A stretch of DNA of 32,000 bases. Origin: Pyrobaculum aerophilum str. IM2 (GTDB taxonomy: Archaea; Thermoproteota; Thermoprotei; Thermoproteales; Thermoproteaceae). The stretch covers positions 1,327,480 through 1,359,479 of the forward strand of contig NC_003364.1 of NCBI RefSeq assembly GCF_000007225.1, read 5' to 3'. A program made the position numbers and the translations under genes. Of this stretch, positions 18,334 to 23,170 are shown one piece after another. The first letter of the stretch is position 1; the number at the start of each line of letters is the position of its first letter. Below the pieces are notes generated by a model. That model had not been told where the DNA came from and searched no databases. It saw only the letters and a program-made list of their open reading frames with translations.

Positions 18334-18675
18334 ATGTCGTTAATAAGAGGCGTGGTGGTCTCCAAGCAACTTGTCTACGACCCCACTGGCACTAAGTACG
18401 TGAAGATAGACGTAGTTGAAGAAAAGGAGTTGCCGGGCCCCGTAGCGGCGTTTTCGGCGCAAGACGAACAAGCCGCCCAGCTAATGAGGGAGGTGATGCC
18501 GTTAGTTACTCAAATAGTGCGTTCGTTACCATTTGGCGGCGGGAAGATCACAGTGCCTCGGATAACTCTGTGGCTTACGGAGGAAGAGGAGGAGGTTTTT
18601 GGCGATATTGACGTTGGCGACGTTATTGAAATAAATATTGAGAACGGGGCAATTACTATTAAGCCAGAAAGTTAA
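18334..18675 (+). CDS. rkd-1: Arcadin-1-like protein (first gene of the arcade cluster)
   Basis: 113-aa ORF lying 23 nt upstream of crenactin. Position and size match the arcadin-1 gene described for Pyrobaculum. The assignment is by synteny and recollection. Confidence 0.65.
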
Positions 18676-18698
18676 AAAAGGGGGGCCGCGTTGTTCTC

Positions 18699-19997
18699 GT
18701 GATTACTGACGCGTACAGGCTGAAATACACATTCGGAGTGGATTACGGCACTAGTTATGTTAAATACGGCCCTATTACGCTTAACGAGCCAAGGGTAGTG
18801 CAGACGCGCGGGTTATTCCTAAGGGATCTCCCCGAATCTGTCAAGATGAGAATACCCCCCGAGATTTTATCGAGAGGGTTAGTGGTTGGCGATGAGGAGG
18901 TTAGGAAATATCTGTCAAGTGTAAGGGATGTACAGCGTAATTTAAAATACCCGCTGAGAGACGGCATAGCGAGGAGAGACGACGAAGATGCTTGGCGCGT
19001 GTTAAAAGAATTGGCGCGGTACACTCTTGCGCAATTTCCAGTGTCTGATCCAGAGTTCAAGGGGTGGATTATATCCATAGCTCTTTCGGCTTTAGCCCCC
19101 GACTACATGTACAAATCGTTTTTCGATATATACACAGAGCTTTCCAATGAGTATAATATATACGCCGTGACTATTTTGCCCCAGCCCTTAGCCGTAGCGA
19201 TTGCGGAGAATGCGGTTAATTGTATTATAGTAGAGGGTGGTCATGGCAATATACAAGTAGCCCCTATAAGTTTTGCGTTAATAAGAGAGGGGCTTGTGGC
19301 CTTAAATAGAGGGGGCGCTGAGGCTAACGCGATTACTAGAGAGATTTTAAGAGACATGGGGTATAGCGACATTGCAAGAGAGGAGTACGCCGTGGAGGTC
19401 GTGAAAAGGGCTGTTGGCCTAGTGCCGAGGAATTTAAGAGAGGCTATTAGAGTCGCCAAGTCAAATCCCGACAGATTTGTAACTAAGGTGAGGCTGTCGC
19501 CAGTGGTGGAGGTGGAGTTTCCGAGGGAGTACGCGTGGACGAGGTTTTTAATAGGCGAGATTGTGTTTGATCCCAATCACGAGGAGATAAAGAGTTACAT
19601 AGAGCAGTCCCGCTTAAGTATTGAAAACGCAGTAATAGGCGATGTGACGTTGTACGGAGAAATGGACATAGCAACTGCCATAATAACCTCGTTGAAAAAC
19701 GTCTCAGTGGAGATACAGGAAAGAGTGGCGTCACAAATTATCTTAAGCGGAGGCGCGTTTAGCTGGAAGGCGCCTGCAGGTCTAGAAGACGTTGCTGTGG
19801 ACAGCGTCACTAGAATAAGAATAGCCTTAGAGGAGAAAAACCCCGTCTTGGCGTCTAGAGTTAACGTCAGGCTGGTGTCGGAGCCGCAATACTCCGTATG
19901 GCGTGGCGCCGTAATATATGGCTACGCCCTGCCGCTGAGTTTAGAGTGGTCGGACTCGACAAAAGAGGGATGGTACTTCCCAAAGAAAAATATATAG
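18699..19997 (+). CDS. cren-1: Crenactin (crenarchaeal actin homologue)
   Basis: 432 aa. It has the actin-fold phosphate-1 motif [14 protein letters not shown], and later [12 protein letters not shown] and ILSGGAF. The sequence agrees over most of its length with my recollection of published Pyrobaculum crenactin. Confidence 0.9.
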
Positions 19998-20010
19998 TGA
20001 ATAGAGAGTT

Positions 20011-20608: not shown

Positions 20609-20620
20609 AGTATATATTTT
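20609..20620 (+). promoter_or_regulatory. Internal TATA box ahead of the 56-aa ORF/arcadin-4
   Basis: AGTATATATTTT is centred about 24 nt upstream of GTG 20638. Confidence 0.45.
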
Positions 20621-20637
20621 CAGATTTATAAACAGGC

Positions 20638-20808
20638 GTGGATATAATCATTGAGGAAGTCAGAAGGGCGTTTGGAAATACCGACGAGGGAAAAGTGGCA
20701 GAACGCCTTATTCTTGCATATAAGGAAGGCGGCGCCCGCGCCGCTAGGGCTGTAATTAGAGAATACCTTCAGAGACTGGGAGTAGATGTGGCGGATAGAG
20801 AGGATTGA
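20638..20808 (+). CDS. Unlisted 56-aa helical ORF in the arcadin-3 position
   Basis: My own translation from GTG 20638 gives VDIIIEEVRRAFGNTDEGKVAERLILAYKEGGARAARAVIREYLQRLGVDVADRED. It ends at TGA 20806-20808, 23 nt inside the arcadin-4 ORF. It is below the track length cut-off. Confidence 0.45.
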   Translation: MDIIIEEVRRAFGNTDEGKVAERLILAYKEGGARAARAVIREYLQRLGVDVADRED

Positions 20809-23170
20809 AGTCGAGAACTTCAGGTCGTACAGAGGGAGGCATATAGTAGCTTTAGGAGACGTGAATATTCTCCACGGGAGAATAGGGGCTGGGAAGACCT
20901 CGTTATTATACGCAGTGGAGTACGCGCTTTATGGGAGACAGCTTGAAGTTAAGGAGCGGGTGGCAAAACTTCAAGACTTGATAAACACGGAGTCGCAGGA
21001 AATGGGCGTTGTGTTGACGTTGCGAAATGGGGACAGAGTTCTGCGCATTGAAAGGCGCCTTGGGCGCCGCAGTAGCGAAAAAGTCGTTGTTAATATAGAC
21101 GGCGTTGAGCTCAGAGGCAAAGATGCCGAGGAAAAACTAGCGGAGCTTTTGGGGGCTGACGAGGACGTTTACGAGAGGCTTGTCTATATATCTCACCGGA
21201 CGCTAGAGGGCTTTATATATGGCACTTCGCAGAAAAGATCGCTGACTGTTGACCGCCTGTTTGGAATTGACGTAATTGACGGAGTAGTGAGGACTATTAG
21301 CGGCGTGGAGAAAGAGCTAATGGAAAAGGCCGAGGAATTGAGGAAGAGGCTGGCGGCGTATGAAAAACATAAAGACATAATTAGGCGCTACGGCGGTTTC
21401 GGCCAGCTGAAAGCGAGACTTGACTCTCTGGCCGGGGAGATTAACGCGTTAAAAGAGAGGGAAGAGCGTTTGGCTAAAGCCGCTGAGGAGTTGGCGAAGA
21501 AGAGGGCTAATTATCTGTCTAAATTACAGGAACAAGAGCCCCTCCTTTTAGAGTACTACAGAGTGAGGTCAGAGCTACAATTACTCGAGGAAGCCGGCGA
21601 GGGGAGCGGGGTGGACTTGTCTATTGTGGAGAGACTGAGAGACGCGCTGTTAGAGGCAGTGGAGGAATTTGAGCATTTCTTCGGGCAGGAACTCGCCGAG
21701 AGGCTTAGGAAAGCCGGGGACCTAGAGACGCTGTCTGTGGCTATGGCTGAGGCATATGACGCGCTTGTAAAACTTCAAAAAGAGCTGGAGGAGCAGGTCC
21801 ACGAGACGAAGAGACTGTATGAACACTATGAAACAAGGGCGAGGAAAATTGAAGTTGAGATAGGCGACGCCGAGGCTAAGTTGAAGAGACTTGAAAAGAC
21901 TTATCGACGCTTTAAGGATTTACAAAAGGCGTATCAATCTCTTGAAAACGCCAAGTTAACGCTTTCTCAACTTAAGAGAAAGTTGGAAGAGGCTGAGAGG
22001 TCGGCGGCATTTATATCGGCTCTAAAGACTGTGGCGTCTTATGCGGCAGAGGTGGGCATGGATAAATGCCCCATATGCGGCGCGCCGCTGAGGGGGGAGG
22101 AGCTCCGGCGCCTACAGGAGGAAATAGAGACAAGAGGCGGCTCTCTAATAAGAGAACTGGAGGAAATGAGGGAGAGGGTGAGAGAGGTAGAGAAGGCAGT
22201 GGAGGAGATGGAGGCGTTGAGCGGAGAGGTGGCGGAGTATCTCGCAGTGAAGACGCGTGTGGAGGAGTTAAAAATAGAGAGGGAGGAGGTCGTGAAAAAG
22301 GCAGTGCAAGCTGAAAAGTCGTTGAGACAGCTTGAGAAGAAACTGGAAAGACTGCGTACGCTGTTGGCCAAAGTAGATAAAAGGACTATCTCCGAGGCGT
22401 TGTCTAAATATGGAAGGGCGCTAAGAGTGCGAGAATTACGCAGGCGTTTAAAAGAGCTAGAGGAAGAGCTTAAAAAAGCGGGCGTTGTAACCGATGCGTT
22501 AAATGTAGACTTAAACTGGAGAGAAGTAGTAGAAGAACTGGAAAGGACCTCTTCACGCCTCGCCGAGGCGTATAAGGAGAAGTCGCTAATTGATGAGGTG
22601 ATAAGAGAAGTGGGCGAGGATTCCGAAGTCTTGAGGAAAAAGTTGGACAACGCGTTATATGCGTACAGTAAATTACAAGAGATCAAGGCAAAACTTGAAT
22701 TAGTTAGAATAAGCGCCAGGGCCAGGCTTTTAGAAGTTGCTAAAAGCCGATTTAATGAGATCTTCACCTCCCTGTATAAATACGGCGATATTGTAAGAGT
22801 AGATGCAGATTTAGAACAACGCAAAGGCTTTTATGACTTCTACGCCATAACTTCTACTGGCGACAAATACGGCATATCGAAACTAAGCGACGGCCAGAGG
22901 CTCTCCATCGCCTTGGCCTTGGCTCTAGCGCTGAGAGACATCGTCGAGATGAACATAGGCTTTATAATCTTCGACGAGCCAATTCCCTACGTAGACGCTA
23001 ATATAAGAAAGGCCTTCGCTGAGATTGTGAAATCAATTGCCGATAAGCTCCAATTGATAATAGCCACTCAATCTAGAGAGTTCGCGGAGCTAATTAAAAC
23101 TGCTGTGCCAAACGCCCTGCTGTTGGTAGTAGATAAAAAAGAGCATTCCAGTATCGTTGCCGAGCGTTAA
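20786..23170 (+). CDS. rkd-4: Arcadin-4-like Rad50/SMC-type ATPase
   Basis: 794 aa. Walker A GRIGAGKTS (aa 31-39). E/K/R-rich coiled coils. CPIC at codons 428-431 (nt 22067-22078) is exactly mid-protein, like a Rad50 zinc hook. ABC signature LSDGQRLS and Walker B FIIFDEP. Confidence 0.8.
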   Translation: MWRIERIEVENFRSYRGRHIVALGDVNILHGRIGAGKTSLLYAVEYALYGRQLEVKERVAKLQDLINTESQEMGVVLTLRNGDRVLRIERRLGRRSSEKVVVNIDGVELRGKDAEEKLAELLGADEDVYERLVYISHRTLEGFIYGTSQKRSLTVDRLFGIDVIDGVVRTISGVEKELMEKAEELRKRLAAYEKHKDIIRRYGGFGQLKARLDSLAGEINALKEREERLAKAAEELAKKRANYLSKLQEQEPLLLEYYRVRSELQLLEEAGEGSGVDLSIVERLRDALLEAVEEFEHFFGQELAERLRKAGDLETLSVAMAEAYDALVKLQKELEEQVHETKRLYEHYETRARKIEVEIGDAEAKLKRLEKTYRRFKDLQKAYQSLENAKLTLSQLKRKLEEAERSAAFISALKTVASYAAEVGMDKCPICGAPLRGEELRRLQEEIETRGGSLIRELEEMRERVREVEKAVEEMEALSGEVAEYLAVKTRVEELKIEREEVVKKAVQAEKSLRQLEKKLERLRTLLAKVDKRTISEALSKYGRALRVRELRRRLKELEEELKKAGVVTDALNVDLNWREVVEELERTSSRLAEAYKEKSLIDEVIREVGEDSEVLRKKLDNALYAYSKLQEIKAKLELVRISARARLLEVAKSRFNEIFTSLYKYGDIVRVDADLEQRKGFYDFYAITSTGDKYGISKLSDGQRLSIALALALALRDIVEMNIGFIIFDEPIPYVDANIRKAFAEIVKSIADKLQLIIATQSREFAELIKTAVPNALLLVVDKKEHSSIVAER

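Follow-up and report, generated by a model that had tools for sequence, protein, structure and literature searches.

The arcade cluster of Pyrobaculum aerophilum IM2: identity, conservation and comparative leads on crenactin and the arcadins

Identity and conservation of the cluster

Five co-oriented genes in a 32,000-nt stretch of the Pyrobaculum aerophilum str. IM2 chromosome (NC_003364.1, positions 1,327,480 to 1,359,479 of the forward strand; hereafter the window, to whose first letter all positions refer) are, as a whole, best explained as the canonical arcade operon of this archaeon, consisting of rkd-1, cren-1, rkd-2, rkd-3 and rkd-4. These genes encode arcadin-1, the actin-fold protein crenactin, arcadin-2, arcadin-3 and arcadin-4, respectively, and we put the probability of this reading at about 0.93. 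The name arcade stands for actin-related cytoskeleton in Archaea. The crenactin–arcadin system is the standing candidate for the means by which Thermoproteales, which lack FtsZ, ESCRT-III and Vps4, divide and segregate their DNA; outside the Asgard archaea, it is also the nearest analogue of a eukaryote-like, regulated actin cytoskeleton. It is already known, annotated and named, and the arcadin-1 crystal structure is that of the protein from this very genome, so finding the cluster in P. aerophilum is not in itself a novelty. The comparative details that we report (the promoter boxes, the overlap between rkd-3 and rkd-4, the arcadin-4 residues and the arcadin-2 fold) are incremental leads. 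Together with the definition of a conserved core and of a disordered arcadin-1 segment, the candidate arcadin-3/arcadin-4 coupling, the arcadin-4 residues and the possible arcadin-2 fold could be of use to experiments on arcadins 1, 3 and 4.

A first-pass annotation, made from the sequence of the window, had described five open reading frames (ORFs) on one strand, separated by gaps of at most 36 nt or by overlaps, and had named their products. The ORF list returned exactly these coordinates (Table 1), with gaps of 23, 13 and 36 nt along the cluster and an overlap of 23 nt between rkd-3 and rkd-4. All five proposed identities were upheld, each protein passing a curated Pfam or NCBIfam model. 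Crenactin reaches 720.5 bits against the equivalog model NF053560 (cut-off 630), with residues 6–426 covering model positions 1–422 of 422, and arcadin-1 reaches 163.7 bits against Pfam Arcadin_1 (PF18653; cut-off 25). The corresponding values are 320.9 bits for arcadin-2 against NF053561 (Rkd2; cut-off 290; residues 1–195, model positions 1–196), 113.4 bits for arcadin-3 against the equivalog NF053562 (Rkd3; cut-off 90; residues 1–56 of 56) and 1081.9 bits for arcadin-4 against NF053563 (Rkd4; cut-off 860). The flanking ORFs also match the published arcadins, as the P. calidifontis arcade cluster (Ettema et al. 2011; Izore et al. 2014, 2016) contains the same five genes, with orthologue identities of about 90% for crenactin, 54% for arcadin-2 (P0015) and 60% for arcadin-4 (P0071), and shares the arcadin-2 binding helix and the arcadin-4 hook. 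Two database entries labelled P. aerophilum, P0001 for arcadin-2 and P0022 for arcadin-4, are 100% identical to the window proteins. The differences that we found between the two clusters are at the species level only.

Ten further Pyrobaculum genomes share one and the same arrangement, which runs from EndA, Hsp20 (opposite strand) and a nitroreductase gene through rkd-1, cren-1, rkd-2, rkd-3 and rkd-4 to a TrmB-like gene (opposite strand) and a radical-SAM gene. Because all five ORFs lie above curated cut-offs and their order is kept in ten other Pyrobaculum genomes, chance is excluded as an explanation of the cluster. Across these ten loci, identity to the window protein is highest for crenactin (85–91%), followed by arcadin-1 (73–84%), arcadin-4 (55–70%), arcadin-3 (52–70%) and arcadin-2 (43–61%). 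An origin from a mobile element or a plasmid-partition system was rejected in view of the uniform GC content and the strict Pyrobaculum synteny with EndA, Hsp20 and the tetraether lipid synthase gene Tes.

Other Thermoproteota carry full-length arcadin-4 relatives at just 26–33% identity. Among the four distant loci examined (L011–L014), three keep the order actin, arcadin-2-like protein (203–253 residues), small protein (48–60 residues) and ATPase of the structural maintenance of chromosomes (SMC) type; in L014, no actin gene is adjacent. The arcadin-2-like proteins of these loci retain the C-terminal N-x-W helix, as well as Asn35 and a G-x-G strand in the N-terminal domain. Since both the gene order and the arcadin-2 motifs persist in distant loci, we regard crenactin, arcadin-2, arcadin-3 and arcadin-4 as the conserved core of the system. 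Arcadin-1 is encoded on the opposite strand, beside an Alba gene, in the three distant loci that have it. Outside these groups, marine Culexarchaeia and Caldarchaeales also hold crenactin with some of the arcadins (PMC9723716). Directly upstream of the actin gene, three of the distant loci contain an ORF of 84–117 codons without a Pfam match (L011, 4595–4876; L012, 4453–4707; L013, 4393–4746), and its product may represent one more, lineage-specific arcadin.

Rfam and tRNA scans of the window gave no match. A scan for bacterial sigma-70 promoters and terminators gave counts at or below shuffle expectation, its models being bacterial and uninformative for an archaeon.

Crenactin and arcadin-2

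The only actin-fold family matched by the 432-residue protein is Pfam Actin (34.7 bits, cut-off 27), and the structures solved for P. calidifontis crenactin (4CJ7, 5LY3 and 5MW1) align to its residues 2–430 with an E-value of 2.4e-259 and about 90% identity. When a profile built from eight crenactins was searched against every Protein Data Bank (PDB) sequence, every match beyond crenactin itself at E < 0.5 was a eukaryotic-type actin or an actin-related protein (Arp). The first of these were Plasmodium actin-1 (E = 6.6e-6) and Arp6 (E = 2.3e-4), followed by further actins, and no MreB, ParM, FtsA or Hsp70 appeared at E <= 1. By this profile search, the protein groups with crenactin and eukaryotic actin and not with MreB, ParM or Hsp70, as its original naming would lead one to expect; eukaryotic actins are its next-best relatives in the PDB, yet remote ones, as the best of the E-values above indicates. 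Two ORFs of 107 and 111 codons, antisense to the crenactin gene, are taken as spurious, the sense frame being 85–91% conserved.

Crenactin of P. calidifontis binds ATP and polymerises into F-actin-like double helical filaments (PMC5173319). By analogy with this close orthologue, we infer that the P. aerophilum protein forms ATP-dependent, double-stranded filaments of the same kind. The likeness to eukaryotic F-actin and its groove-binding regulators (thymosin beta-4, WH2 and similar) lies in the double-stranded filament and in the use of a hydrophobic groove by a regulator helix (PMC5173319). Unlike eukaryotic actin, crenactin has no profilin, gelsolin or Arp2/3 partner in the cluster, and arcadin-2 is without sequence similarity to eukaryotic actin-sequestering proteins (PMC5173319). 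The statements that the first-pass annotation had made on this system, namely its description in P. calidifontis, the actin-like double filaments of crenactin and the binding of the arcadin-2 tail to it, agree with the literature (PMC5173319; PMC7617429).

A PDB sequence search with arcadin-2 returned nothing significant. In its AlphaFold2 (AF2) model, which has a mean predicted local distance difference test (pLDDT) score of 77.5, an N-terminal alpha/beta domain (residues 1–108; element order alpha-beta-beta-beta-alpha-beta; block means of 85–93) is followed by a 47-residue helix (121–167), a disordered linker and a terminal helix. The polyproline linker and the basic/aromatic tail noticed at the outset are both present in the 196-residue protein, as KPPPLPPPPGG and then ENEWVRYLRSRGK. 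Between species, this linker differs in both length and sequence, and its pLDDT stays below 50. Across 18 sequences, six residues of the tail ENEWVRYLRS are invariant (N185, W187, V188, L191, R192 and S193), with N185 and W187 also invariant in the four distant loci.

This tail corresponds to peptide 187–203 of P. calidifontis arcadin-2, which binds the hydrophobic groove of crenactin. Compared with P. calidifontis, the P. aerophilum linker is shorter and proline-rich, and the tail carries Tyr in place of Ile and Arg in place of Lys. P. calidifontis arcadin-2 binds crenactin 1:1 with a dissociation constant (Kd) of ~31 nM, solely via its C-terminal helix; this helix fills the hydrophobic groove in which the D-loop of the next crenactin subunit would otherwise sit, and arcadin-2 thereby depolymerises filaments (PMC5173319). 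The P. aerophilum tail, judged by its orthologue, would bind the crenactin groove and depolymerise filaments in the same manner.

The fold of the arcadin-2 N-terminal domain provides a further, weaker lead. Among Foldseek matches of its AF2 model against the PDB, restriction-endonuclease-like folds rank first, represented by XisH (2okf, E = 2.9e-4), AF2093, tRNA-splicing endonucleases, SfsA, BamHI, lambda exonuclease and Bax1. The nuclease-fold match is weak, its template modelling (TM) score being ~0.4 by query length and 0.56–0.60 by target length. At the sequence level, a Pfam scan of arcadin-2 at E <= 1 found nothing relevant to a nuclease fold, weak Pfam matches at E <= 10 over the 18 arcadin-2 sequences included no nuclease family, and an hhalign comparison of the arcadin-2 profile with a profile of the window's own tRNA-splicing endonuclease (EndA) gave a probability of 0.3%. 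Neither a canonical PD-(D/E)xK triad nor a conserved (D/E)xK on strand 3 was found in the near and distant arcadin-2 sequences, whose N-terminal domains have only N35, G88, G90 and V94 invariant in common. The P. aerophilum domain is acidic, with an isoelectric point (pI) of 5.4. As it comes without sequence-level support, the apparent resemblance of the modelled domain to nuclease folds is kept as a weak lead only.

Arcadin-4, arcadin-3 and arcadin-1

Arcadin-4 appears to be an ATP-binding cassette (ABC) ATPase of the Rad50/SMC class, its head being split, its coiled coil antiparallel and a CxxC placed at the apex. Its best sequence match is Rad50 (E = 1.3e-12), and Pfam SMC_N scores 70 bits. 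Foldseek with the AF2 model (mean pLDDT 85.2) also ranks Rad50 first (7zr1, E = 1e-25), with Smc5/6, condensin and MukB coming next. In the model, an N-terminal lobe leads into a helical arm (162–423), which ends in a loop with CPIC (424–436) and returns as a second arm (437–663) to a C-terminal lobe, the loop joining helices 386–423 and 437–528. The hook that had been placed in the middle of the protein is indeed there: C428-P-I-C431 lies near the midpoint of the 794-residue chain, is invariant and occupies the apical loop of the model, which makes it a putative zinc hook.

At the same time, arcadin-4 is not a bona fide Rad50, because it falls far under the Rad50 cut-offs and has no Mre11 neighbour. 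The best of the Rad50 equivalog models, Rad50_Sulf, gives 148.8 bits against a cut-off of 1000, the others give 65–119 bits against cut-offs of 700–1087, and no Mre11 was found in or beside the cluster, either in this window or in loci L001–L014. Across 20 arcadin-4 sequences, with identities down to 26%, the Walker A, signature and Walker B motifs are conserved as listed in Table 1, and the D-loop residues are invariant. A phmmer alignment places arcadin-4 'yiSHrtle' opposite 'yiKQgeia' of Methanocaldococcus jannaschii Rad50, so that a His stands at the position of the Q-loop glutamine. At the H-loop, the arcadin-4 stretch 'iiaTQsref' stands opposite 'iiiTHhrel' of M. jannaschii Rad50 and 'ilvSHdeel' of Pyrococcus furiosus Rad50, and the signature LSDGQ aligns with Rad50 LSGGE. 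Arcadin-4 thus resembles Rad50 in its split ABC head, long antiparallel coiled coil and apical CxxC. It differs in its His for the Q-loop Gln, its Gln for the H-loop His and its LSDGQ for LSGGE, all kept family-wide, as well as in having no adjacent Mre11, a 56-residue protein as its likely partner and a gene linked to an actin gene. An ORF of 261 codons on the opposite strand within rkd-4 (22039–22824) was rejected as a gene; with 70 Ser and 38 Leu, it is a by-product of the 61%-purine strand that encodes the coiled coil.

The 56-residue arcadin-3 has no significant relative by PDB sequence search. Its gene overlaps rkd-4 by 23 nt in 10 of the 11 Pyrobaculum loci and by 14 nt in the remaining one (L009), and in all four distant loci the small ORF overlaps the ATPase gene by 4–8 nt. 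Such a near-invariant overlap points to translational coupling of arcadin-3 to arcadin-4 and, probably, to a stoichiometric complex in which arcadin-3 is the small subunit. Both proteins have been described as uncharacterised (PMC5173319).

Over its 113 residues, arcadin-1 is 100% identical to chain A of PDB 5LY5; the protein in that crystal is P. aerophilum arcadin-1, whose gene had been amplified from genomic DNA (NP_559897.1, NC_003364.1; Izore et al. 2016, PMC5173319). Work on the P. calidifontis orthologues showed that arcadin-1 is oligomeric, binds crenactin weakly (Kd ~15 uM) and leaves polymerisation unaffected (PMC5173319). Residues 32–71 (window positions 18427–18546) are disordered and missing from the 5LY5 crystal structure, yet in 11 species they form the most conserved segment of the protein, with 70% invariant columns against 58% and 38% in the flanks. 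Conservation despite disorder suggests that this segment is a binding motif.

Candidate promoters

As a promoter test, we looked for a pure A/T octamer within -40 to -15 of each start codon, a pattern that ~10% of the window's 26-nt segments contain. Such an octamer lies upstream of rkd-1, of cren-1 (at -38 to -20) and of rkd-3 (at -31 to -17) in all 11 Pyrobaculum loci, compared with 7 of 11 loci for rkd-2 and 2 of 11 for rkd-4. The AT-rich element upstream of rkd-3 that the first-pass annotation had proposed as an internal promoter is present as AGTATATATTTT, and the equivalent octamer in every locus lends support to that proposal. In most species, rkd-2 starts just 1–4 nt past the crenactin stop codon. 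The boxes and this tight cren-1/rkd-2 junction fit three leaderless-type units (rkd-1; cren-1 with rkd-2; rkd-3 with rkd-4), and transcription of the cluster probably starts from three promoters of leaderless type, located upstream of rkd-1, cren-1 and rkd-3. Both the TAAATATTTATAT box and the TTAAAAAA box overlap a stop codon, the former that of the nitroreductase gene upstream and the latter that of rkd-1. Because the loci are related and boxes overlap stop codons, these elements are suggestive of promoters rather than proof of them.

The spacer between rkd-2 and rkd-3 is 36 nt in P. aerophilum and 20–27 nt elsewhere, P. calidifontis included among the species with a shorter one. In P. aerophilum only, it contains a second, near-consensus TATA-like box, TTTATAAA, at 20624–20632, 6–14 nt upstream of the rkd-3 GTG; if active, this box would start transcription inside rkd-3.

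Proposed function

Taken as a whole, the arcade system most likely has a cytoskeletal role in rod shape and/or division, within an order that has no FtsZ, ESCRT-III or Vps4. The following scheme would account for its parts. Crenactin, by reference to its orthologue, would polymerise into ATP-binding, F-actin-like double-stranded filaments. The Trp-bearing helix of arcadin-2, carried on a flexible linker, would enter the crenactin groove in competition with the D-loop of the next subunit and would thereby sequester monomers and depolymerise filaments, while arcadin-1 oligomers would bind crenactin weakly. Arcadin-4 is predicted to fold back on itself, such that CPIC at the tip of the coiled coil could pair two molecules via a shared zinc ion, and arcadin-3, coupled to arcadin-4 translation, may act as its small subunit.

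The first-pass annotation had based its functional argument on the lack of both FtsZ and the Cdv system in Thermoproteales. The absence of FtsZ, ESCRT-III and Vps4 stands, but that of CdvA does not, since CdvA homologues have been reported in the meantime: diverged CdvA orthologues and two CdvA-like paralogue families occur in nearly all Thermoproteales (Makarova et al. 2024, PMC10936438). Reviews from 2022 and 2024 still name crenactin and the arcadins as the most likely, unproven division machinery of this order (PMC7617429; PMC7613921).

Several observations weigh against the picture drawn here. The experimental evidence has been called inconclusive, with CdvA-like proteins as alternative division components (PMC10936438), and doubt has been cast on the helical localisation of crenactin, which may be an artefact (PMC7613921). 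In P. aerophilum itself, the functional data on these proteins consist of the arcadin-1 crystal structure, and the arcadin-2 tail of this species has a Tyr (Tyr190) where every other species has Ile or Leu. The Pfam model Rad50_zn_hook stays sub-threshold on arcadin-4 (14.3 bits, cut-off 24.3), and, given the non-canonical Q-loop His and H-loop Gln, ATPase activity of arcadin-4 is not to be assumed. Finally, the three candidate promoters and the predicted arcadin-3/arcadin-4 complex are deduced from sequence conservation.

Two narrower readings divide shape from division. Crenactin might be an MreB-like determinant of rod shape only, without direct involvement in division or DNA segregation, and with division carried out by other factors, such as CdvA-like and PRC-barrel proteins. 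This would fit the correlation of crenactin with rod or filament shape across archaea (PMC7613921), the CdvA orthologues and paralogues known in Thermoproteales (PMC10936438) and the synteny of the cluster with the gene for the membrane-lipid enzyme Tes. We nevertheless find it doubtful, as it leaves the conserved partnership with a Rad50-like ATPase unexplained, and no division machine is known that works with CdvA in the absence of ESCRT-III and Vps4 (PMC10936438). Nor does it explain the mid-cell position of arcadin-2 that the relevant passage of PMC9723716 reports. That position would instead suit an actin-based cytokinetic machine, in which crenactin and the arcadins form a constriction apparatus in place of FtsZ or ESCRT-III. 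The lack of FtsZ, ESCRT-III and Vps4 in Thermoproteales and the verdict of the two reviews cited above argue in the same direction. Against it stand the inconclusive experiments already mentioned, the observation that crenactin forms cell-spanning structures and not rings (PMC7613921), and the fact that none of the five proteins examined has a membrane-binding element. In its strict form, such a constriction apparatus is therefore a tentative proposal, which we would not favour by itself over the broader role in rod shape and/or division.

The actin-driven DNA-segregation machine at which the first-pass annotation hinted is speculative. A chromosome-segregation machine resembling ParMRC is a minority hypothesis, and we consider it unlikely. 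Here, arcadin-2 would serve as a ParR-like adaptor, its N-terminal domain binding DNA and its C-terminal helix capturing crenactin, and arcadin-3 with arcadin-4 would act as a Rad50-like tether or condenser of DNA. What the system has in common with ParMRC is an actin-fold filament and an adaptor with a C-terminal helix that occupies the groove bound by ParR on ParM, and in the orientation of ParR (PMC5173319). Arcadin-2 was, moreover, localised between segregated nucleoids, according to the passage of PMC9723716 that summarises Ettema 2011. The best matches of its modelled N-terminal domain are restriction-endonuclease-like folds, the nearest relatives of arcadin-4 (Rad50, Smc5/6, condensin and MukB) are DNA-handling ATPases, and the order actin, arcadin-2, arcadin-3, arcadin-4 is kept over large distances. 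However, the nuclease-fold match is weak and comes without sequence support or a catalytic triad, the domain in question is acidic, and DNA binding by arcadins is a prediction only. In vitro, arcadin-2 depolymerises filaments instead of capping or stabilising them (PMC5173319), and the crenactin profile does not match ParM. Furthermore, unlike plasmid ParMRC, the arcade cluster is chromosomal and lies beside housekeeping genes, with no centromere-like repeat array found in or beside it. The most elaborate version, in which a ParR-like arcadin-2 with an inactivated nuclease-like, nucleic-acid-binding N-terminal domain would join a zinc-hook-dimerised arcadin-3/arcadin-4 tether with a rewired ATPase site to couple crenactin dynamics to segregation or nucleoid clearance at mid-cell, strikes us as improbable.

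Table 1. Genes, candidate promoter boxes and protein motifs of the arcade cluster (window positions)
Feature	Positions	Strand	Description	Basis
TATA-like box TAAATATTTATAT	18301-18313	+	21-33 nt upstream of rkd-1 ATG; candidate promoter, leaderless rkd-1 transcript	
rkd-1, arcadin-1	18334-18675	+	113 aa, ATG start	ORF list, Pfam Arcadin_1
TTAAAAAA box	18672-18679	+	overlaps rkd-1 stop codon; 20-27 nt upstream of crenactin GTG; candidate crenactin promoter	
cren-1, crenactin	18699-19997	+	432 aa, GTG start	NCBIfam crenactin
rkd-2, arcadin-2	20011-20601	+	196 aa, GTG start	NCBIfam Rkd2
arcadin-2 Pro-rich linker KPPPLPPPP	20515-20541	+	residues 169-177	sequence
arcadin-2 C-terminal helix ENEWVRYLRSRGK	20560-20598	+	residues 184-196	conservation and homology
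AT-rich box AGTATATATTTT	20609-20620	+	18-29 nt upstream of rkd-3 GTG; candidate internal promoter	
rkd-3, arcadin-3	20638-20808	+	56 aa, GTG start	NCBIfam Rkd3
rkd-3 end/rkd-4 start overlap	20786-20808	+	23 nt	ORF coordinates
rkd-4, arcadin-4	20786-23170	+	794 aa, ATG start	NCBIfam Rkd4
arcadin-4 Walker A GRIGAGKTS	20876-20902	+	residues 31-39	G31, G34, G36, K37, S39 invariant
arcadin-4 His137	21194-21196	+	position of Rad50 Q-loop glutamine	alignment; His in 19/20 sequences
arcadin-4 CPIC, C428-C431	22067-22078	+	putative zinc hook	C428, P429, C431, G432 invariant
arcadin-4 signature motif LSDGQ	22883-22897	+	residues 700-704	S701, D702, G703, Q704 invariant
arcadin-4 Walker B FIIFDEP	22961-22981	+	residues 726-732	D730, P732 invariant; E731 in 19/20
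arcadin-4 Gln762	23069-23071	+	position of Rad50 H-loop histidine	Gln in 20/20 sequences

Neighbouring genes

Directly downstream of rkd-4, the window encodes a TrmB-like regulator on the opposite strand and the tetraether lipid synthase Tes (23241–25783; Tes matches NF045702 with 651 bits, cut-off 450). The position of this pair is kept in the nine Pyrobaculum loci that are long enough and in the distant locus L011; locus L002 ends within rkd-4. Further downstream lies a three-gene unit with overlapping junctions on the minus strand (25800–29523), consisting of a MacB/FtsX-like permease (28384–29523), a MacB/FtsE-like ABC ATPase (27629–28393) and a 610-residue protein (25800–27632) that matches no family and combines a signal peptide with a C-terminal membrane anchor and a long, repetitive helical region. 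A stop-free frame of at least 860 codons on the plus strand (29419–32000) runs off the 3' end of the window and represents a large open-ended gene with a hydrophobic C-terminal stretch.

Upstream of the cluster, between the Hsp20 and nitroreductase genes, a 79-residue protein encoded on the minus strand (17321–17560) carries two CPxC zinc-ribbon motifs, its zinc-ribbon matches being sub-threshold. Two proteins are lineage markers, both consistent with P. aerophilum: ThermoDBP, the single-stranded-DNA-binding protein of Thermoproteales type (7036–7599, minus strand; PF18361, 203 bits), and a PaRep2b repeat-family protein (12145–13701, minus strand; 901 bits). Near the start of the window, the plus-strand region 1075–5184 begins with a 952-residue P-loop protein that has a GWGKSE Walker A motif, an LVLIDEADE Walker B motif and a long helical C-terminus and matches no Pfam or NCBIfam model. 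It is followed, across overlapping junctions, by an unmatched 171-residue protein and a NurA-domain nuclease (PF09376, 72 bits), and the region looks like an uncharacterised NurA-associated ATPase operon without a recognisable HerA.

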